DNA of 64,000 nt, from the NCBI GenBank assembly GCA_000091205.1, contig AP006496.2. One strand, given 5' to 3'. A program made the position numbers and the translations under genes. Position 1 is the stretch's first letter, and each line of letters opens with the position of its first letter. Below the pieces are notes generated by a model. The model was not told the origin of the DNA. It did not search any database and was given only the letters and a program-made list of their open reading frames with translations. This document shows positions 6,445 through 48,362 of this stretch, piece by piece. Origin of the DNA: Cyanidioschyzon merolae. Lineage: Eukaryota.

Positions 6445-8772
6445 TCAACTCACATAGTGGTACAGGTTAGGGTCCCGCTCATCGCGGCCGATGTATTCAC
6501 GTTGGAGGAGCGATTCAACGCGCTGCTTCACATCCGAAACCGACGGTCCGAAGCAGAGCTCGGCGCCAAGCTGCTGCACGAGGTCTGCATGCGACAGACT
6601 CTTCTGTTTCTTCAGCAACCGCACGATGGCTGCATCGATTTGGTGCTGTCGATCAGGGCTCGCTACCGGGCCGCTCGGTACCTGCTCGGGCGGCCGCTCC
6701 AACAAGGCAATGTCCAAAAGTCGCAAACGACGACGACTTGTCTGCAGATCGGCGTTGAAACGATAGCGTGCAGGAGCGGTCACAGGCCCTGATGAGGCAG
6801 CTTCTGCACCACGCTCTCGAATCAGCACCGGACACTGCGATGAGGAGAGAGAATCCAGAATCCGTTCAAGCTCCGCAGAGTCCGCGATACCGGTCTGCTG
6901 CTGTAGTTCCGCAAGCGTCCAAGCATCCCGTTCGTTGAAGAGCAGCAGCACCACGGCCTGGCTCAGCGTAACGTGAAGCACTTTCTCGCCGTTAGCAAAC
7001 TGCACCCGTAGCTCTGCGGAACTCAGAGACGGCTCCCAGATAAGGCGCCTTCCAGAAAATCGTGCGTGATAAAAGCGATGAAAAGAGCGCTGCTGACTCT
7101 CCAGCCCCGGTGGTACCTGCAGCAAGAAAGATTCGCTACTGTTCCAGTATGCCTGTGTGATGACTTTGCAGGTGAACGACGGCAATCGAGATGAACCCGA
7201 TCCCGGACCCATTCGGTACTCCTGCAAAAGGTCCTGACTAAGATCCATATCTTTGAGCATATTGACGAGATGATTGACATAGACTGCGCCACATTCGGCG
7301 CGTAGCAGTTCCACCACGTACTGCTCGCAGGCCGTCGACGCAGTGAGATCGAATAGCAAGCGCTGTGCCAGATACTTTTTGTAAAAGGCCAGAAAACTAT
7401 CCTTGCCGCTAAGATAACGAAAGAGCTCCAAAAGCTTTCCGATTTTGCGCCGTATGTCCGGCTCCGGAATCGAGGTGCTGCTCACGCGCAGCAGGTCGTG
7501 AAAAGAGCGAGCCAAGCGCTCCGCCGGTGTAGGCTGGCGGGTGTTCAGCGCCGCCTCAAAAGCCGTCTGGGCTGCATTATGGAAACGAACGTCTGCCTGA
7601 AACGCTTCCCGTTCGGTTTGCTCGGCACGATCCAGCAACGCTAACAATCGCTCTATCATTTCGTGATCACGCGCCCGATCGTTCACGATCTGTGTCCCTC
7701 GAACACGAATATAATCACTGTAGCGCGGCACAAGACGCCACAATTCATCTATGGATCGCAACAGCACATAGAGACGACGCAAATCCGTTAGAGATACAGC
7801 GTCTAAGAGGCTCTCCAGGCCCCGATCCATCATCACACTCACACAGTGGCGACCGAGCACATCGTGCAGGATCGCGAACAGCGGTTTCTCCGTGCTCGGC
7901 TCGAGGTGGAGGCGGCAGCGCTCAGCCTCGGCCTGTGTACTGTGCTCAAAATAGGCCAAATAGTCCGATAGAGTTCCCTGTGTGACAAATTCGGTGCCTT
8001 TCGCCACATAAAATGCGCGCGTCTGCTGGAAGAAGAGCGGCTCGAAGTGGGTGCGATAGAAACCCAACGGTGCGAACATCTCCCTAAGAATAGCGCGTAA
8101 GTCTGAGCAATCTCCTCGCTGTTTGCCTTTGCGATCCAGCTCGATTTCCAGAAGCACTGCTCCGAGCGTCGGCAGGAGGACGCGTTGTTGTTCCGCGAGC
8201 ATGTGCTTCGCGAACAGCTCTAGCGCCATCTCCCACAGCGACGGCACCTGAGGACTTTCCGCCGCATAAGTCCGATCGAGGTAGAGAAAAATCGCCTGGA
8301 TATCCCGAAATCGCTCACAGAAAGCTCGCCACACATCGAGCACAGGAGCAAAAGCGGGCCGCTCCGTTGGTTCAACTGCCTGAGCGCTACCCTGTGCCAC
8401 GTGCAGCATAGCCGCTAGGACGGGATCGCTCAGCTGTTCCCGAAAAACGCGCTCGAGATACCCGTCCACCTCCCGCTGCAAGTCCGCGTACAGCTGCTTT
8501 GCGAGATGGTGCAGACACAAGTCCTCCACGCGGCGATAGTGCTCTTCGTACGAGAGCGGCCTCCGCGAAGAAGGCGAGAACACCTGGTCGAGTGCCCGTG
8601 CCAGGTGAGTCCAGCTCTCCTGATAGAACTCCTGGGGGAGTTTCGGCTCCCGCCGGAGCGGCCGAATAATGAGCTTTTTGGGTGCTCGCTGGTTTGATTC
8701 CATCTCCTCTGTGACTGAGCGGGTCCCAGGCGCTTCGCAACCAGCTCCAAACTCCTCGTTCGCAGCGTTCAC
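6445..8772 (-). CDS. CUL4: Cullin-4-like ubiquitin-ligase scaffold
   Basis: 775-aa ORF. The N-terminal KKLIIRPLRREPKLPQEFYQESWTHLARALDQVF resembles the CUL4 N-terminus. Cullin-homology and C-terminal winged-helix motifs are present (VNHLVNMLKDMDLS, IDAAIVRLLKKQKSLSHADLVQQL, ESLLQREYIGRDERDPNLYHYVS), including the neddylation-site region. Confidence 0.85.
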   Translation of the reverse strand: MNAANEEFGAGCEAPGTRSVTEEMESNQRAPKKLIIRPLRREPKLPQEFYQESWTHLARALDQVFSPSSRRPLSYEEHYRRVEDLCLHHLAKQLYADLQREVDGYLERVFREQLSDPVLAAMLHVAQGSAQAVEPTERPAFAPVLDVWRAFCERFRDIQAIFLYLDRTYAAESPQVPSLWEMALELFAKHMLAEQQRVLLPTLGAVLLEIELDRKGKQRGDCSDLRAILREMFAPLGFYRTHFEPLFFQQTRAFYVAKGTEFVTQGTLSDYLAYFEHSTQAEAERCRLHLEPSTEKPLFAILHDVLGRHCVSVMMDRGLESLLDAVSLTDLRRLYVLLRSIDELWRLVPRYSDYIRVRGTQIVNDRARDHEMIERLLALLDRAEQTEREAFQADVRFHNAAQTAFEAALNTRQPTPAERLARSFHDLLRVSSTSIPEPDIRRKIGKLLELFRYLSGKDSFLAFYKKYLAQRLLFDLTASTACEQYVVELLRAECGAVYVNHLVNMLKDMDLSQDLLQEYRMGPGSGSSRLPSFTCKVITQAYWNSSESFLLQVPPGLESQQRSFHRFYHARFSGRRLIWEPSLSSAELRVQFANGEKVLHVTLSQAVVLLLFNERDAWTLAELQQQTGIADSAELERILDSLSSSQCPVLIRERGAEAASSGPVTAPARYRFNADLQTSRRRLRLLDIALLERPPEQVPSGPVASPDRQHQIDAAIVRLLKKQKSLSHADLVQQLGAELCFGPSVSDVKQRVESLLQREYIGRDERDPNLYHYVS

Positions 8773-14939: not shown

Positions 14940-15839
14940 ATGTTCGCTTTGGAAGAGCTTCCACGGATACCCGACTTCACTGAGCGTGCAATTTGTGAGC
15001 TTTTCGAACTATACGCATCCATCGAGAGTGTACAGCTACCACCGCAATCATCCGACGCAACGAACAGCTCCAGCGCTACGGCACCTGGGAACATCTTCAG
15101 TGCTGAACGTGGCCCCAGGTACCTTGGCCCAAGAGCGCTGGTTCGTTTCTTTACTGAGCTTGGTGTAGACATGCGCTCGCTGGCTGCCTTAGCGTTTGCC
15201 TGGCTCGGACGTTGGCAGTACCCCTGTCATTGCAGAGAAGAGGGTTTTGCGCGAGGCGTGCGTTACGCGCTCTGGGCACTAGACCGGCGGCAGCACAATG
15301 AGCCCAGACGCTGGGAACAAGTCCAGGCGACATGCTCAACGCTTCTCGAAACCAGTATCTGGCCAAGGGAATCGACAGCACTGTTTGAACGGCTCCGATC
15401 GGCCTTTCCGGACGCCGTCCTGTCCTACACGCAGCGTTCTGCTGAAGCCGCTCTTGATTTTTACCTTTTCGCCTTTGACTTGAACCGCCAGAGCCCATAC
15501 CGGCGCTCGCTGTCGCTCACTGACGCCCGTTACCTCTGGAAACAGTTTCTCAGCGAATCGTGCTATCTCGCGACGCCTGCTTCCCCGGGAACGCCAGCGG
15601 GAGTCGCCAATCAGCCATGGCGATATCTCGAGCACTTTGACGCATACCTCGAGTCGCGCTGTGGAATGGCTGGCACCATCATCTCACGTGATACATGGTA
15701 CTGGGTGCTAATGTTTGCGCGCGAAACCCAGGTCGCAGGATCCAGCTTCTTTGCGAACTACAACCAGGGGGATGCCTGGCCTGTACTCCTAGACGGATTT
15801 GTGGAGTATCTGCGCGAAAACAAGCTTCTTAGCTCGTGA
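14940..15839 (+). CDS. DCN1: DCN1-like (defective in cullin neddylation) protein with a PONY domain
   Basis: The C-terminal block ISRDTWYWVLMFARETQVAGSSFFANYNQGDAWPVLLDGFVEYLREN matches the DCUN1 PONY-domain signature (IPRDTWNLLLDF...YDEEGAWPVLIDDFVEF). Upstream, RFFTELGVDMRSLAALAFAW matches the DCUN1 FFEDLGVDPEDIVVLVLAW block. Confidence 0.8.
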   Translation: MFALEELPRIPDFTERAICELFELYASIESVQLPPQSSDATNSSSATAPGNIFSAERGPRYLGPRALVRFFTELGVDMRSLAALAFAWLGRWQYPCHCREEGFARGVRYALWALDRRQHNEPRRWEQVQATCSTLLETSIWPRESTALFERLRSAFPDAVLSYTQRSAEAALDFYLFAFDLNRQSPYRRSLSLTDARYLWKQFLSESCYLATPASPGTPAGVANQPWRYLEHFDAYLESRCGMAGTIISRDTWYWVLMFARETQVAGSSFFANYNQGDAWPVLLDGFVEYLRENKLLSS

Positions 15840-37905: not shown

Positions 37906-38454
37906 TCCTGTGAATAAGCATGAATTTAGACTGTATGATCTTGGGATATATTTCGTTTCGCGGGTCGTCACACACCGAAAATCATACTGCCCCGACATAC
38001 TGTTCCAGGGCGAGCGCTGCCGCCTCCTCGATCCGGCGAGCGGCCAATAGGAGCAGAGCGCGCGACGCTGTCCCTAAATACCATATTCGTCCCATTATAT
38101 TCATTCAAGTACATTTATGAACAGATGCTCACGGGGTGCAGGCCGCGTCCCCAGGCGCTCGCCCTCTCCTCAATCCAGCCGCTGATCGATACGCCTACTG
38201 GCCAGGTTCTGCAGACTTTTGCTGGCGCTGCGCACCTTCAAAGTCAGGACGTCGAGAAGCACACTTTGTGCAGCAACTGCCACTGCCACGGCTGTTGCTT
38301 CGGGCACGACTTGTTGGGAAACTGCAATCTGTGAGCATCTTGGTTTCTGTCTACTTCATAACGCCTTTACCCCGGATAGGCGTTCTCAAGCGCGCGATAA
38401 CCCCCTGCTGCAACGCCATCGGAAGCACGGATCGCGTGACGCCCCACAGGTTCG

Positions 38455-38925
38455 ATGCGTCGACAGCTCCTCGTACAGTGTCCGAACGGACGTATAGTCT
38501 CCACGAATGTGTTGGCGACGGACTCCCTCGCGGTTGTCCTGTCGCGAGTCACCGGTCTTGACGCCGACGCCGTCTACGGCACCGTGGCTGGTGGCCGACC
38601 AGTAGCGACGCTACGCGACGCGCTGGTAAACTTCACGGATCCAGAGGCGCCCATCGTGATTCAAGCTCATGTGCGGGTGCTTGGCGGTGGAAAGAAACGG
38701 AAGAAGAAGACATACACTACGCCGAAGAAGATCAAACACAAGCACAAGAAAGTGAAACTCGCTACACTGAAATATTACGCAGTGGACGATGCGAACAAGG
38801 TGACCCGGCTGCGGAAAGAATGCCCAAACGAGAGCTGTGGGGCAGGCGTTTTTATGGCTCAACATCGGGACCGCATCTACTGTGGAAAATGCGGACTTAC
38901 CTACGTCCAGGAGGACAACGCGTAA
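38455..38925 (+). CDS. RPS27A: Ubiquitin-like / ribosomal protein eS31 (S27a) fusion with a strongly diverged ubiquitin moiety
   Basis: The C-terminal half, [71 protein letters not shown], is canonical eS31 including its zinc-ribbon cysteines. The N-terminal 79 aa ([19 protein letters not shown]...[13 protein letters not shown]) have beta-grasp-like periodicity and the GG cleavage site but only about 25% identity to ubiquitin. Confidence 0.85.
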
Positions 38926-39169: not shown

Positions 39170-39568
39170 CTATGCACGCCGCTCGCCTGGTGGCCGGCCC
39201 GCACCAGCCTCTGTGCGCGTTCCGAGAAGGATGCCCTCGACGTCGCGGTCGCCCCGCCGCGGCGCCCGGGGAATAGTCCGCACTCGACGCTCCTCCTTGG
39301 GCCGAACCCGAACTGTTCGCCGGTGCACTGCACAGGAGACACAGTAGCGTATCTTCATGTACTGTTTGGGCAGCACGTAGTTCTCTATGCATGACGCCTC
39401 CGCGAGATCTCTCAGCGCGCTCGCCTCAACGAGGTTCTTCACTACGAAGCGTTGAATGGCCTTATCTTTCCGAGGACGACCCCCGCAACCGTCACAAATA
39501 ACCGGCCTCGCTTTTCCTCTACCATGACAACCGCCTTTCCTACCGTGATTTCTCCTTTTCTTCACCAT
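39170..39568 (-). CDS. RPS26: 40S ribosomal protein eS26
   Basis: MVKKRRNHGRKGGCHGRGKARPVICDGCGGRPRKDKAIQRFVVKNLVEASALRDLAEASCIENYVLPKQYMKIRYCVSCAVHRRTVRVR matches eS26 ([87 protein letters not shown]). Confidence 0.9.
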   Translation of the reverse strand: MVKKRRNHGRKGGCHGRGKARPVICDGCGGRPRKDKAIQRFVVKNLVEASALRDLAEASCIENYVLPKQYMKIRYCVSCAVHRRTVRVRPKEERRVRTIPRAPRRGDRDVEGILLGTRTEAGAGRPPGERRA

Positions 39569-45287: not shown

Positions 45288-48200
45288 ATGGGCAACGTAC
45301 GCAGACTAGAGAACAGTTCAACCGAGCATAGACTATGGAGTGCGTTAGGATTCACTGCACCCATAAACGATCGCTTTAGGCTTCGGGTAGCGTCACCGCG
45401 GGACTCGTGTGGCTGGAAGCGCTCACCGTGGACGCCTGCTGTCTCTCTGACGCGCTCCCCAAGACGCCCTCGACGGGGAACACTGACGACGCTGTGTCCA
45501 GTAGCGACAGCCGCTGCAAACAAACGAGGACAGGCTTCGTCACCAAAGATGAATAATTTCGGAAAAGATGGGGGACGTAGCGCTGGTGCTTCTCTGGAAG
45601 GCACCGGTGCTTTTTCGCCGCTCGATCGCCACTATGGCGGTGTGCACTACCTTGTACACAAGTTTGGAGGGTCGTCTCTTGCGGACGCGCCATGCTTCGA
45701 ACAGGTTGTGAGCGTACTCGAGAAAGAACTGGCTGCGGAGACGGCTGCGCTTCGTCAGCTAGCAGAGGCCGCTGGTCGGGAAGCGCTTCCTTGCCGCCTC
45801 TTCGTGGTCGTTTCAGCGGTGAGCGGTGTCACCAACACGCTTGAGCACGCGCTGCAGTGTGCGATTGAGCGCAATAAGGACGAGCACTACCTGGAAGTAT
45901 TACAGAAGCTCCAGGAACGTCACGAAACGCTTGCGCATGCCCTCTTAGACAGCAACGAAGCGAAGCAGCCATTTTTTGCCATGCTATCGTCAACCATGCA
46001 AGACCTGAAGGACCTGCTGCGAGCTGCCTTTATTTCTAGATCGGCATCCAGTGCAGTGAAAGACCTTGTGCTGGGTTACGGGGAGTTGTGGTCGGCACAG
46101 CTTATGTGGGCACGCCTGCGGCAGCAACAGCGCCTGCATGTGGCTGCGGGTCAAAATACCCCAGGAAGTGTCGTGTGGCTCGACGCACGCAACGTTATCG
46201 CTGTGCGACGTATACCAACCATGCCGTCTGAGCGCAAGTCCGTGGACTGGGATATGACGCAAAAGCTATTCGACGAGTGGATGAGCCAACACGCGGGCTC
46301 AGGACTCGTTGTAGCAACCGGTTTCTTGGCTCTGGACGCAGACCGGAGAGTACCTACCACACTGGGTCGCAACGGCTCGGATTTCTCTGCAGCAATCTTC
46401 GCTCGGCTGGTACGCTCGCCCACATGCACGATATGGACTGACGTGGACGGCGTATTTTCGGCAGACCCGCGTTGCGTCCCGGATGCGATTATCATTCCAC
46501 AACTCAGTTTCAAAGAGGCAGCCGAACTGGCGTACTTTGGTGCCAAAGTACTCCATCCGGATACGCTGACACCGGTCGTCATCAGCGGAACACCCGTTCG
46601 CATTCGGAATACGTTCCGCCCGGATGCTGGTGGCACAGAGATCCTGCCGTCAGCGCGAATGCTTGCTGGTGAAGCGGCTCTCGATGCAGCGAACCAAGTG
46701 AACGGATCGATCGGGGTTGCACATTCTTTTGCATCGTTGGCAGCGAGGAAAGCGGCCATGGGTATCACTGCGGGCGTCAAAGGCTTCACTTCCGTTCGGG
46801 ATATTTCCATCGTGAACGTAGAGGGAGCGGGCATGATCGGCGTACCTGGTATTGCCAGCCGTGCATTCGCCGCACTCTACGCTGCGAATGTTTCCGTTGT
46901 TTTGATCGCACAAGCGTCCTCAGAGTTCTCCATCTGCGTTGCAGTGCCCGGTACAGACGGCACCACGGCTACCGAGGCGTTGCGGCGAGCGTTCCGTATC
47001 GAAATCGAAGACCAGATCATCAATTCTGTTGAACTGCTGGCAGACTGCTGTATTCTGGCCATGGTTGGTGAAAACATGCAGAACACACCCGGTGTCTCTT
47101 CGCGCCTGTTCACCGCATTGGCTAACGCCGGTGTCAATATCCGAGCGATCGCCCAGGGCAGCAGCGAACACAACATTTCAGTGGTGATCCAGGCTGGTGA
47201 TGAGGTGCGAGCACTTCGAGCAGCGCACGCTGCCTTCTACCTCGGCGACTACACCATTTCCGTGGGTATTATCGGGCGCGGACTTGTCGGCAGTACTCTG
47301 ATCGAGCAAATGCGTGAACAGAGAGCCAAGCTCCACGACCAGTACGGAGTCGACTTTCGCATTCGGGCCATTGCGTCCAGCAGTCGTATGTGGTTGCTCA
47401 GCAGTGGCGAAAATTTCGATGAGTTCAGTGCACCAGGTCGCAACTGGATGGACGATTTTGAAAAACGGGCGGAAACGCTCGATCTCGATCGCTTTGTAGG
47501 CCACGTGAACGACGGAACCCTACCACACGCGGTACTCGTCGACTGCACTGCTTCTGGCGAGATTGGTGCCAAGTATGCCTCTTGGTTGCGGGCTGGACTC
47601 CATTTGGTGACACCGAACAAAAAGGCAAACTCTGCTTCAATGGAGTACTATCGGGAGATTCGCGACGCAATGCGCGCACGGAACACACACTTCTTCTACG
47701 AAGCGAACGTCGGTGCTGGACTACCCATCATATCCACCGTCCGGGATCTGCTGCGTACTGGAGACTCGTTTCTCAGCATAGAAGGCATTTTCAGTGGCAC
47801 GCTCTCGTACATCTTTAACTGCTTCGACGGAAGTACCCCGTTCAGCCGCATCGTTCAGCAGGCCAAGGAACTTGGGTACACGGAACCGGATCCTCGGGAG
47901 GATCTCGCTGGTGCAGACGTTGCGCGAAAAGTCGTCATTCTTGGACGTGAAGTCGGGCTCGACATTGAGCTCGATCAGATTAGCGTCCAGAGTCTGGTAC
48001 CGGCCGCACTGGACGCCAGCCAGGGCGTATCAGTCGCCGAGTTTATGGAACGCTTGCCCGAGTTCGATGACGAACTCAACCGTCAAGTCCAGGAGGCAAG
48101 CTCCCGTGACCAAGTACTCCGCTATGTTGGCGTTGTCGATGTTCAGAACCGGCGGTGTGCTGTGGAACTGCGCGCGTATCCACGCAGTCATCCCTTTGGT

Positions 48201-48362
48201 GGCCTCGAAGGCAGCGATAATATCGTGTGTTTCCGAACTGTTCGCTATGATGCGCAGCCACTAGTTGTACGAGGACCGGGTGCTGGGGCTCAGGTCACCG
48301 CCGCTGGTGTCTTTGCGGACCTCCTGCGTCTAGCCGGACACTTTGGTGCACCAAGCGGTTAA
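45288..48362 (+). CDS. Bifunctional aspartokinase / homoserine dehydrogenase
   Basis: The aspartokinase N-terminus is VHKFGGSSLADAPCFEQV. ACT-domain regions follow (ISIVNVEGAGMIGVPGIASRAFAAL; ILAMVGENMQNTPGVSSRLFTALANAGVNIRAIAQGSSEHNIS), then the homoserine dehydrogenase NAD-binding motif ISVGIIGRGLVGSTLIEQ and the catalytic domain (EANVGAGLPIISTV). The first 87 aa are Arg/Ser/Thr-rich, suggesting a possible organellar transit peptide. An alternative start is Met 45549 (MNNFGKDGG). Confidence 0.85.
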   Translation: MGNVRRLENSSTEHRLWSALGFTAPINDRFRLRVASPRDSCGWKRSPWTPAVSLTRSPRRPRRGTLTTLCPVATAAANKRGQASSPKMNNFGKDGGRSAGASLEGTGAFSPLDRHYGGVHYLVHKFGGSSLADAPCFEQVVSVLEKELAAETAALRQLAEAAGREALPCRLFVVVSAVSGVTNTLEHALQCAIERNKDEHYLEVLQKLQERHETLAHALLDSNEAKQPFFAMLSSTMQDLKDLLRAAFISRSASSAVKDLVLGYGELWSAQLMWARLRQQQRLHVAAGQNTPGSVVWLDARNVIAVRRIPTMPSERKSVDWDMTQKLFDEWMSQHAGSGLVVATGFLALDADRRVPTTLGRNGSDFSAAIFARLVRSPTCTIWTDVDGVFSADPRCVPDAIIIPQLSFKEAAELAYFGAKVLHPDTLTPVVISGTPVRIRNTFRPDAGGTEILPSARMLAGEAALDAANQVNGSIGVAHSFASLAARKAAMGITAGVKGFTSVRDISIVNVEGAGMIGVPGIASRAFAALYAANVSVVLIAQASSEFSICVAVPGTDGTTATEALRRAFRIEIEDQIINSVELLADCCILAMVGENMQNTPGVSSRLFTALANAGVNIRAIAQGSSEHNISVVIQAGDEVRALRAAHAAFYLGDYTISVGIIGRGLVGSTLIEQMREQRAKLHDQYGVDFRIRAIASSSRMWLLSSGENFDEFSAPGRNWMDDFEKRAETLDLDRFVGHVNDGTLPHAVLVDCTASGEIGAKYASWLRAGLHLVTPNKKANSASMEYYREIRDAMRARNTHFFYEANVGAGLPIISTVRDLLRTGDSFLSIEGIFSGTLSYIFNCFDGSTPFSRIVQQAKELGYTEPDPREDLAGADVARKVVILGREVGLDIELDQISVQSLVPAALDASQGVSVAEFMERLPEFDDELNRQVQEASSRDQVLRYVGVVDVQNRRCAVELRAYPRSHPFGGLEGSDNIVCFRTVRYDAQPLVVRGPGAGAQVTAAGVFADLLRLAGHFGAPSG

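Follow-up and report, generated by a model that had tools for sequence, protein, structure and literature searches.

The gene at positions 38455..38925 of the plus strand in the 64,000-nucleotide stretch of DNA analysed here (the window) is the already annotated, single-copy RPS27A (S27a/eS31) orthologue of the red alga Cyanidioschyzon merolae, and it encodes a precursor in which ribosomal protein eS31 follows a leader no longer recognisable as ubiquitin from its sequence. We consider that this leader probably descends from ubiquitin and diverged in place, and that it would be cleaved off by a protease and serve as a folding and production aid for eS31, no longer as ubiquitin. The coding sequence is a single intron-free open reading frame (ORF) of 156 amino acids, TAA stop included in the coordinates, whose product matches C. 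merolae 10D BAM81237.1 / XP_005537273.1 with 100% identity; BAM81237.1 bears the record title "40S ribosomal protein S27A, ubiquitin fusion protein". The features of the locus are the following, the slash marking the junction wherever a motif spans it:

38437..38439, plus strand: upstream in-frame TGA, 18 nt 5' of the ATG (read from the sequence)
38455..38688, plus strand: ubiquitin-like leader, residues 1-78 (AlphaFold, Foldseek, hhalign and dN/dS, without a Pfam or BLASTP match)
38590..38604, plus strand: G46-G47-R48-P49-V50, beta3-beta4 turn and beta4 (invariant columns; register from MAFFT and hhalign)
38674..38688, plus strand: C-terminal tail of the leader, R74-V75-L76-G77-G78 (alignments of the Cyanidiales leaders and of 32 fusion proteins)
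Between 38686-38688 (G78) and 38689-38691 (G79), plus strand: predicted scissile bond (homology of the junction)
38689..38922, plus strand: ribosomal protein eS31 (S27a), residues 79-156 (Pfam PF01599 and identity to solved ribosomes)
38821..38892, plus strand: four-Cys zinc ribbon, C123, C128, C143 and C146 (all four Cys invariant in the 32-sequence alignment)
38923..38925, plus strand: TAA stop codon (sequence and ORF list), TGA in one environmental variant

According to the ORF list, the ORF starts at the first ATG downstream of the TGA at 38437-38439, which closes the frame and therefore leaves no room for an N-terminal extension or an upstream ubiquitin exon in frame. The only methionine codons are M1 and M134; M1 is thus the sole AUG ahead of the eS31 half, and eS31 is translated jointly with the leader. 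This half, with a net charge of +14, shows a Lys-rich N-terminal extension followed by a globular zinc-ribbon domain, and shares 68-79% identity with the eS31 chains of solved 40S and 80S structures. The Pfam scan of the protein reported Ribosomal_S27a (PF01599) alone, at residues 104-149 (E 5.7e-25; score 87.4 bits, cutoff 22.3). Both this family and the four-Cys zinc ribbon are present at the eS31 end of the fusion, as in the RPS27A/UBA80/Ubi3 orthologues. A preliminary description of the window had placed a ubiquitin-like/eS31 fusion gene at 38455-38925, with the ORF exactly as we find it, and had rightly called the S27a half canonical.

Canonical ubiquitin is normally more than 90% identical across eukaryotes. 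The first 79 residues of the C. merolae protein, searched alone, matched no Pfam family even at E≤1, PF00240 being absent, and a BLASTP comparison of the leader with human ubiquitin yielded no alignment at E≤100. When a profile of four Cyanidiales leaders was searched against PDB sequences with hmmsearch, the best match was a ubiquitin variant with an E value of 1.1. In contrast, hhalign aligned the leader with a ubiquitin/NEDD8/FUBI profile over 72 columns (residues 4-78 against 2-76) with a probability of 84.5% and an E value of 7e-6. Plain sequence methods thus fail here; the relationship is recovered only by profile-profile and structure comparison. Identity to ubiquitin is 18% in the profile alignment, 16-22% in structural alignments and 24% in a global pairwise alignment.

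None of the seven ubiquitin lysine positions (K6, K11, K27, K29, K33, K48, and K63) is kept in the leader, and residues 1-78 are devoid of lysine in all four Cyanidiales leaders. We rejected the lysine-free state as a sign of selection against ubiquitylation: lysine makes up just 2.3% of residues in the long ORFs of the 64-kb window, so that the probability of finding no lysine in 78 residues is 0.16 and the state is uninformative alone. Ubiquitin residues L8/I44/H68/V70 correspond to P10/V44/Q70/H72 of the leader according to MAFFT and hhalign, and further changes, in ubiquitin numbering, are R42>G, Q49>P and R74>L. The tail reads VRVLGG, versus LRLRGG in ubiquitin. Thus, the leader lacks PF00240, the lysines, the hydrophobic patch and the LRLRGG tail by which canonical ubiquitin is recognized.

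The leader is nevertheless, on the evidence of structure models, a true ubiquitin-fold (beta-grasp) domain that directly abuts eS31 in the same frame. Its secondary structure has strands at residues 3-8, 14-19, 40-44, 48-50 and 67-73, and helices at residues 25-33 and 53-58. AlphaFold modeling with a mixed alignment gave a pLDDT of 91-95 across residues 1-50, and modeling from the four Cyanidiales leaders, with no canonical ubiquitin in the alignment, gave a mean pLDDT of 88.1 and a pTM of 0.76. Foldseek matched the leader model to ubiquitin and ISG15 structures with TM scores of 0.66-0.76 and rmsd values of 2.1-3.0 Å, and its best 50 PDB matches were all ubiquitin, ISG15 or SUMO (TM 0.64-0.76). 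The beta-grasp fold proposed in the preliminary description is therefore borne out by AlphaFold, Foldseek and hhalign, and the loss of the I44 patch and of the ubiquitin lysine context is borne out by the alignments. Its identity figure of about 25% is at the upper end of the values measured (16-24%).

The junction between the two halves is highly conserved. G77 and G78 are invariant in 32 of 32 aligned fusion proteins, and the junction GG/[GA]KKRKKK is found in 116 of the 119 surveyed homologues, the exceptions being P0097 (VG/AK), P0195 and P0201. The Gly-Gly junction is thus retained, as first described, with G77-G78 before G79-K80; however, the leader is 78 residues long and not the 79 residues ending in VLGGG that had been assigned to it: by homology, the third glycine (G79) opens eS31, as it does in many homologues with GG/GKKRKKK. 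Conservation of R74, of the hydrophobic residue at position 75 and of G77-G78 suggests that the leader is cut proteolytically after G77-G78. In yeast, ubiquitin is described as a cis chaperone for eS31 whose cleavage is needed for a fully functional 40S subunit (Lacombe 2009, as cited in PMC8122580 and PMC11274626).

In the comparison with related species that had been suggested for this gene, orthologues with the same architecture were found in Cyanidiococcus yangmingshanensis (77% identity), one further relative (71%) and Cyanidium caldarium (57%). The orthologues are syntenic, with eS26 (on the opposite strand), ATP-synthase delta/epsilon and DUF3611 as conserved neighbours. Among Cyanidiales, identity is 30-60% in the leader and 81-100% in eS31, dN is 0.28-0.35 and 0-0.04, respectively, and the leader evolves about 10 times as fast as eS31. 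Since synonymous sites are saturated in most pairs, dN/dS could be used in the two least saturated species pairs, where values of 0.21-0.27 for the leader indicate purifying selection. Nineteen leader positions are invariant across the four Cyanidiales, including R74, G77 and G78, with a hydrophobic residue at position 75 (ubiquitin L73). The tails read RVLGG in C. merolae and Cyanidiococcus, RLLGG in Cyanidium and RVHGG in the further relative. G47-R48-P49-V50 is also invariant in the four leaders; G47 aligns with G47 of ubiquitin and P49 with ubiquitin Q49 (FUBI Pro47), a register found independently by MAFFT and hhalign and in agreement with the predicted strands. At the position of ubiquitin R42, three leaders have Gly and that of Cyanidium has Phe, non-polar in both cases but not Val.

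An artefact, whether a sequencing or assembly error, a missed intron, or a locus that is only a pseudogene or a paralogue alongside a canonical gene, has a negligible probability, and none of the scenarios that the preliminary description had named as able to refute it (assembly error, intron, pseudogene and paralogue) survived testing. A protein identical to this one is recorded on 62 contigs. The leader is also identical in five independent metagenome contigs, whose sequences vary only at silent nucleotides 57 and 87 and by a TAA>TGA change of the stop codon. The ORF is uninterrupted, the single-domain fold is confident, the eS31 half is complete with its zinc ribbon, the leader is under purifying selection, and the syntenic orthologues of the three other taxa share the architecture. 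Furthermore, a tblastn search of the complete 64-kb window with ubiquitin, NEDD8, FUBI and eL40 as queries gave chance matches only and none at the gene, from which we reject a hidden canonical ubiquitin exon or any other ubiquitin-like coding sequence in the window. A DCN1-like protein and a cullin that bears a neddylation domain are also encoded in the window, and ordinary machinery of the ubiquitin family is therefore present.

A metagenome scan with the leader revealed no new Cyanidiales diversity, the five contigs with the identical leader being consistent with C. merolae; one other match (L010, on a GC-rich contig of 354 kb) lies outside any real ORF and was attributed to chance. The four-sequence leader profile was also searched against 1.84 billion representative proteins and gave a single match, with an E value of 2e-4, and no credible relative. 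This match, a bacterial subtilisin of 789 residues with repeated GGWRVENHPR...VNGDG units, was judged spurious. The cluster of C. merolae itself was missed in this search, probably because another S27a protein represents its 50%-identity cluster.

Divergence of ubiquitin-S27a is a known pattern, published for nematodes, Apicomplexa, Giardia and other protists. It is reported for Caenorhabditis and 12 other species, including nine protists of six phyla (Jones and Candido 1993, Catic and Ploegh 2005, both as cited in PMC10457151), and for every mammalian Plasmodium species covered by Dalhuisen et al. 2023 (PMC10457151). The leader is diverged in most of the 119 homologues surveyed here, including essentially all Mucoromycota matches (41-55% identity), a trematode and an acoel, and across eukaryotes the leaders grade from 99 to 18% identity with ubiquitin. 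A residue other than Arg at ubiquitin position 74 recurs in this graded series; a general loss of R74 in diverged leaders is, however, derived from a sample biased toward LGGGKK-containing sequences, and a search with the eS31 half only returned fragments of at most 135 residues, whose tail statistics are unreliable. The literature and this sample contradict the initial premise that the ubiquitin fused to eS31 is canonical in almost all eukaryotes. Nor does the gene mark an unusual lineage, as had been suggested: the DNA comes from C. merolae 10D, a sequenced model red alga in which the gene is annotated as a ubiquitin fusion. In the literature searched, which covered Catic and Ploegh 2005 through later summaries, we found no paper on the Cyanidiales case.

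An analogy with FUBI-eS30 had been drawn at the outset, and it proved apt in the RxLGG motif, which is present in the tail of the C. merolae leader, and in the invariant Pro at the ubiquitin Q49 position. O'Dea et al. 2023 (PMC10611586) count an RxLGG tail and Pro47 in the small set of strictly conserved features by which cleavage of FUBI is limited to USP16/USP36. In an alignment-based comparison with FUBI Pro47 and Val40, which give FUBI a hydrophobic environment around the I44 patch, Pro49 is invariant and in register, and the R42 equivalent, at the Val40 position, is Gly or Phe. The resemblance is modest, two or three positions carrying it, and hhalign global scores gave no sign of a specific FUBI relationship, the values for FUBI (13.7), the ISG15 C-domain (14.0) and ubiquitin (11.7) being all weak and indistinguishable. 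That the Cyanidiales leader appears to carry these FUBI-type protease determinants is, to a modest degree, the new point of this analysis.

We propose that the leader, translated first and ahead of eS31, would fold as a stable beta-grasp domain and thereby help to produce and solubilise the very basic eS31; such a chaperone role is an extrapolation from yeast. Cleavage after G77-G78 would be the work of a USP- or UCH-type deubiquitinase, either ahead of the entry of eS31 into the pre-40S particle or during it, and the FUBI-like surface and tail suggest a restricted protease linked to ribosome biogenesis rather than deubiquitinases in general. The released leader would not work as ubiquitin, without chain lysines and with an altered L8/I44/V70 recognition patch, and it presumably escapes conjugation; it also seems to evolve too fast to serve many partners. 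Selection would maintain the hydrophobic core and the Gly-Gly, together with a surface that faces the protease (P10, G47-R48-P49-V50, H72, and R74). If the released leader is no longer ubiquitin, cellular ubiquitin must come from other genes, and C. merolae CMK296C has been taken as the rhodophyte cytoplasmic ubiquitin (PMC5487736).

Three other readings of the leader have to be weighed against this one. A leader that is never removed, and thus forms a lasting ubiquitin-like domain at the beak of the 40S subunit, would follow the example of Giardia lamblia, whose diverged S27a leader is reported to be uncleaved (Catic 2007, as cited in PMC8122580 and PMC11354881), and a loss of processing would lift the ubiquitin-type constraint, in keeping with rapid divergence. 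We regard it as unlikely in C. merolae. The lack of cleavage in Giardia has been put down to a disrupted di-glycine, through an extra alanine between the glycines according to PMC8122580 or a Gly75-to-Ala change according to PMC11354881, whereas the LGG/G junction of C. merolae is intact and invariant and cleavage is therefore expected. G77-G78 is accompanied in the four Cyanidiales by R74 and by a hydrophobic residue at the ubiquitin L73 position, and such conservation of the tail is expected only if a protease still reads it. Furthermore, uncleaved ubiquitin-eS31 in yeast is described as unstable and poorly assembled, and as perturbing initiation (PMC11274626). The chance that the released leader is a lineage-specific conjugatable modifier with targets of its own, and not merely a discarded chaperone, appears smaller still. 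Cleavage would expose a C-terminal Gly-Gly, and Arg is kept at the position of ubiquitin R72, an E1 specificity determinant. In addition, a few conjugates have been reported for the closest analogue, FUBI (PMC10611586). The rate of change that separates the leader (30-60% identity) from eS31 (81-100%) is, however, unfit for a protein read by E1, E2, E3, and reader proteins; the lysines are absent and the I44 patch is altered, and the profile search of the 1.84 billion representative proteins, with the bacterial subtilisin as its single match and no credible relative, gave no sign of a free-standing paralogue.

Least probable of the three, and to our mind very improbable, is a leader taken from another ubiquitin-like gene (FUBI-, ISG15- or NEDD8-like) that recombined onto eS31 and replaced the original. 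The RxLGG tail and the Pro at ubiquitin position 49 are features of FUBI/ISG15 type, and the hhalign scores of FUBI and ISG15 are marginally above that of ubiquitin, but the gaps between 11.7, 13.7 and 14.0 are within noise, and FUBI-eS30 is confined to Holozoa (PMC8354635). Divergence in place is the simpler account, because the leader matches ubiquitin-eS31 exactly in junction, length and position and because a graded series of leaders exists, from 99 down to 18% ubiquitin identity and with recurrent non-Arg residues at position 74.

A broader extension of the proposed leader that diverged in place and is cleaved off is put forward tentatively, and we think it more doubtful than not. Rather than simply decaying, highly diverged eS31 leaders such as that of C. 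merolae may have arrived by convergence at the solution of FUBI: a non-polar residue ahead of the Gly-Gly (RxLGG) and a Pro-containing, uncharged I44-patch environment would shield them from bulk deubiquitinases and leave their processing to one USP16/USP36-type USP linked to ribosome biogenesis, so that removal of the leader would be a spatially controlled checkpoint of 40S maturation. If so, the same logic would have arisen independently on eS30 in Holozoa and on eS31 in Cyanidiales, and perhaps in others, and many eS31 proteins that surveys based on Pfam list as unfused would in fact have a cryptic leader of ubiquitin fold.

As a finding of a genome scan the gene is of little weight: it was annotated, and papers of 1993 and 2005 had already described how ubiquitin linked to S27a escapes concerted evolution. 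The analysis adds Cyanidiales, with four taxa, to the lineages whose ubiquitin supply appears uncoupled from eS31 synthesis, and the genetic tractability of C. merolae makes it convenient for asking what role a leader plays once it is no longer ubiquitin. The conserved G-R-P-V, H72, R74 and Gly-Gly point to a protease interface and provide a testable hypothesis of restricted processing. Surveys of domain architecture call for caution, since Pfam shows the protein as eS31 only and such leaders are counted as absent.

Compared with yeast Ubi3 and human RPS27A (UBA80), the C. merolae precursor has the same fusion order, the GG/GKKRKKK junction and a zinc-ribbon eS31, and presumably the same logic, in which the leader aids eS31 production and must be removed; however, their leader is authentic ubiquitin that feeds the cellular pool. 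The C. merolae leader presumably cannot supply ubiquitin, and ubiquitin supply and eS31 synthesis would thereby be uncoupled. With the diverged UbS27a of protists and nematodes it shares gene and architecture, a highly conserved eS31, a ubiquitin moiety that escaped extreme conservation and, where examined, the ubiquitin fold, although at 18-24% identity it lies at the extreme end of the 119-homologue range. The Giardia leader is, to our knowledge, the one diverged S27a leader studied biochemically. Like that of C. merolae it is a very diverged eS31 leader with a tertiary structure that is still ubiquitin-like, and the two differ in the di-glycine, disrupted by alanine in Giardia and intact as LGG/G in C. 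merolae. This Giardia protein, GlUb(S27a), a "ribosomal ubiquitin variant", has been proposed to keep only the role of ribosomal-protein chaperone (Catic et al. 2007, as cited in PMC10457151). Finally, FUBI-eS30 (FAU) is also a fast-evolving, lysine-poor ubiquitin-like leader that ends in Gly-Gly on a small-subunit ribosomal protein, and in both leaders conservation is limited to few protease-facing features. The partner in Cyanidiales is eS31 (PF01599) and not eS30, the hosts are red algae and not Holozoa, and the equivalents of FUBI Val40 and Phe4 are Gly/Phe and Leu; processing of FUBI by USP36/USP16 is demonstrated, whereas for the Cyanidiales leader a comparable protease specificity is suggested by its conserved residues.

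The ubiquitin-like/eS31 (S27a) fusion gene and the window features considered with it are the following:

38455..38925, plus strand: S27a fusion ORF, a single frame of 156 codons which ends in TAA
38437-38439, plus strand: in-frame TGA, 18 nt 5' of the start
39170..39568, minus strand: eS26 gene (PF01283, E 5e-35), tail-to-tail with S27a, around 245 nt from the S27a stop
6448..8772, minus strand: cullin with a C-terminal neddylation domain
14940..15836, plus strand: DCN1-like Cullin_binding protein
45288..48359, plus strand: bifunctional aspartokinase / homoserine dehydrogenase (1024 aa, two ACT domains), an ordinary metabolic gene

The only Met codons of the S27a fusion ORF are M1 and M134; after M1, no further AUG occurs before the C-terminal half, which is therefore produced jointly with the N-terminal half. 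The encoded protein is 100% identical to P0121, the protein of C. merolae strain 10D (BAM81237.1 / XP_005537273.1), whose database name is "40S ribosomal protein S27A, ubiquitin fusion protein", and it is present on 62 contigs, the longest of 852,727 bp. The window shows 56% GC and genes without introns, consistent with the C. merolae genome. An identical leader (the ubiquitin-like N-terminal part) is encoded on five independent metagenome contigs, which excludes a sequencing or assembly error; these copies differ from the window only by silent changes at nt 57 and nt 87 and by their stop codon (TGA instead of TAA).

Pfam detects a single domain in the full protein, Ribosomal_S27a (PF01599; residues 104-149, E 5.7e-25). 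The first 79 residues scanned alone gave no Pfam match even at E<=1, BLASTP produced no alignment between the leader and human ubiquitin, and tblastn of ubiquitin, NEDD8, FUBI (the ubiquitin-like leader of eS30) and eL40 against all 64 kb found chance matches only, none at the S27a locus. No canonical ubiquitin exon is concealed near the S27a gene. The preliminary description of the gene was therefore correct, including its coordinates. The eS31 half of a full-length AlphaFold model corresponds to eS31 chains from solved ribosome structures (68-79% identity). The Lys-rich N-terminal extension of eS31 (38689..38790, aa 79-112) shows a mean pLDDT of around 45-56 over residues 81-110 and values <50 in residues 99-110. 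This extension is predicted to be disordered when off the ribosome, in agreement with a need for solubility help before assembly.

AlphaFold with a mixed alignment modeled residues 1-50 with pLDDT 91-95 and a beta-beta-alpha-beta-beta-alpha-beta topology. This alignment included canonical ubiquitins, therefore the prediction was rerun on the four Cyanidiales leaders alone, which gave a mean pLDDT of 88.1, a pTM of 0.76 and the same topology. With the Cyanidiales-only model, the top 50 Foldseek matches in PDB are all ubiquitin, ISG15 or SUMO chains (TM 0.64-0.76, rmsd 2.1-3.4 A, identity 16-22%). Furthermore, the four-leader profile aligns end to end with a small ubiquitin/NEDD8/FUBI profile (4-78 against 2-76; probability 84.5%, E 7e-6, 18% identity). 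The relationship is invisible to sequence-only searches: the best PDB match of the leader profile was only a ubiquitin variant (E 1.1), and among 1.84 billion representative proteins the single match was a spurious bacterial protein. Leader residues 15-49 had a 54% match at 1501..1602 of L010, a 354-kb GC-rich metagenome contig; it was attributed to chance, because it lies in no plausible ORF on its strand and the opposite strand carries a 601-aa ORF there.

Residue correspondences to ubiquitin were taken from MAFFT and hhalign registers, which agree. All seven ubiquitin lysines are replaced and the leader contains no Lys; however, with Lys at only 2.3% of residues across the long ORFs of the window, the probability of finding none in 78 residues is 0.16, so this absence alone does not point to selection. 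Other replacements are L8 to Pro, R42 to Gly, I44 to Val, Q49 to Pro, H68 to Gln and V70 to His, and the ubiquitin tail LRLRGG is VRVLGG in the leader. Nineteen positions are invariant in all four Cyanidiales leaders, including L6, V7, P10, G12, G47-R48-P49-V50, H72, R74 and G77-G78. A 79-aa leader ending in GGG had been proposed; the GG junction holds, but by homology the leader ends at G78 and the third glycine is part of eS31, as in many fusions with GG followed by GKKRKKK.

The closest homologs belong to Cyanidiococcus yangmingshanensis (77% identity), a third relative from JGI and Logan assemblies (71%) and Cyanidium caldarium (57%), and none of the three shows a Pfam ubiquitin match. The loci are syntenic: the window order S27a, eS26 (opposite strand), ATP-synthase delta/epsilon and DUF3611 is common to two orthologous loci, and in Cyanidium S27a has the ATP-synthase gene as its upstream neighbor. 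The pairing of the two 40S protein genes, eS26 and S27a, is also found at the locus of the third relative (L002/L003), and the Cyanidiococcus-like locus (L001) has an unannotated 177-aa minus-strand ORF at the position corresponding to eS26. Bacterial-style start rules skew gene calls in the public protein collection: P0001 (137 aa) was called from a TTG inside the gene, equivalent to L20 of the true protein, and P0003 (193 aa; L002 3001..3582) from a GTG 38 codons 5' of the true ATG, and such lengths should not be taken for biological variants. Among the four taxa, identity is 30-60% in the leader vs 81-100% in eS31, and Nei-Gojobori dN in the closer pairs is 0.28-0.35 and 0-0.04, respectively. 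Leader dN/dS was 0.21 and 0.27 in the two usable pairs, synonymous sites being saturated in most comparisons. These values indicate a genuine coding domain under selection, which changes roughly ten times faster than eS31. An artefact, an intron or a pseudogene is excluded.

The observation of a diverged leader was confirmed, and its preliminary interpretation proved right in part. The premise that eS31 carries canonical ubiquitin in nearly every eukaryote is contradicted by published divergent leaders. According to PMC10457151, highly divergent S27a leaders were described from Caenorhabditis in 1993 and from 12 more species in 2005, including nine protists of six phyla, and the Giardia leader still resembles ubiquitin in its tertiary structure although its sequence has diverged very far. 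A divergent leader also occurs in all mammalian Plasmodium species examined (PMC10457151; also PMC6332867). In 119 homologs with a recognizable junction, leader identity to ubiquitin varies continuously between 18% and 100%. Practically every Mucoromycota match has a leader 41-55% identical to ubiquitin with two or three lysines and an [E/D]LLGG tail, in which R72 and R74 are both gone, and a non-canonical eS31 leader appears to extend throughout this fungal phylum. They include Rhizopus, Mucor, Mortierella, Umbelopsis, Phycomyces and other genera (P0009, P0010, P0015, P0017, P0036, P0040, P0085, P0092 and others). Identity is 22% in the trematode Echinostoma, and 38 and 61% in the copies of an acoel. 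An apparently GC-rich lineage, found only in metagenome and Logan contigs, has MAPxQVFLRG...ARV[VL]GG leaders (18-33%; P0006, P0012, P0016, P0027, P0045, P0078, P0093), equally diverged but unrelated in sequence to the Cyanidiales leader; most of them lack Lys, and those starting MAPVQVFLRG are at 18-25%. In leaders <=29% identical to ubiquitin, lysine is nearly always absent and the C-terminus reads R-[VL]-x-G-G, a trend that is a lead only, since the sample is biased toward query-like junction sequences and leader-independent sampling yielded fragments only. As Pfam gives only PF01599 for the protein at 38455..38925, Pfam-architecture counts of unfused eS31 in algae, fungi, plants and animals (PMC8122580 Figure S3) would misclassify such proteins. 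The S27a fusion is an annotated gene with a documented evolutionary pattern; our literature search found no paper mentioning the Cyanidiales case.

In yeast, as described in PMC8122580 and PMC11274626, the ubiquitin of Ubi3 (the ubiquitin-eS31 precursor) gives cis-acting help in eS31 production and is cut off very rapidly, and uncleavable ubiquitin-eS31 is unstable, assembles poorly and disturbs initiation. In the most straightforward interpretation, the leader of C. merolae retains this role as a cis-acting production aid, for which a stably folded beta-grasp domain and a Gly-Gly that can be cleaved would suffice. The leader would have lost all requirements for working as ubiquitin, and cellular ubiquitin would have to be supplied by other genes; PMC5487736 cites CMK296C as the cytoplasmic ubiquitin of C. 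merolae. The cullin and DCN1-like genes, less than 8 kb apart, indicate that ordinary ubiquitin/NEDD8 ligase machinery exists, although the S27a leader could not supply ubiquitin.

The main alternative to a cleaved production aid is a leader that remains on eS31, as reported for Giardia in PMC8122580 and PMC11354881; however, the Giardia di-glycine is disrupted, whereas C. merolae has an intact di-glycine that, like R74, does not vary among the Cyanidiales leaders. The fast change of the leader and the absence of a free-standing relative make a new conjugatable modifier unlikely. Replacement by another ubiquitin-like gene would fit the two FUBI-type motifs, and nothing else supports it.

In a set of 156 FUBI sequences, strict conservation is limited to the Phe4 patch, the RxLGG tail, Pro47 (at ubiquitin Q49) and Val40 (at ubiquitin R42), and a non-polar residue before Gly-Gly with a hydrophobic I44 environment shields FUBI-eS30 from bulk deubiquitinases, leaving its processing to USP16 and USP36 (O'Dea et al. 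2023, PMC10611586). The tail of the Cyanidiales leader is RVLGG or RLLGG, with RVHGG in a single taxon; Pro is invariant where ubiquitin has Q49, and the R42 equivalent is non-polar (Gly in three leaders, Phe in Cyanidium). This pattern suggests restricted processing. These FUBI-type determinants are a small new point, testable in C. merolae. The hhalign scores of the leader with FUBI (13.7), ISG15 (14.0) and ubiquitin (11.7) are not distinguishable, and FUBI differs in fusion partner and in lineage, FUBI-eS30 being holozoan (PMC8354635). The likeness at two or three positions would represent, at most, functional convergence and not family membership.
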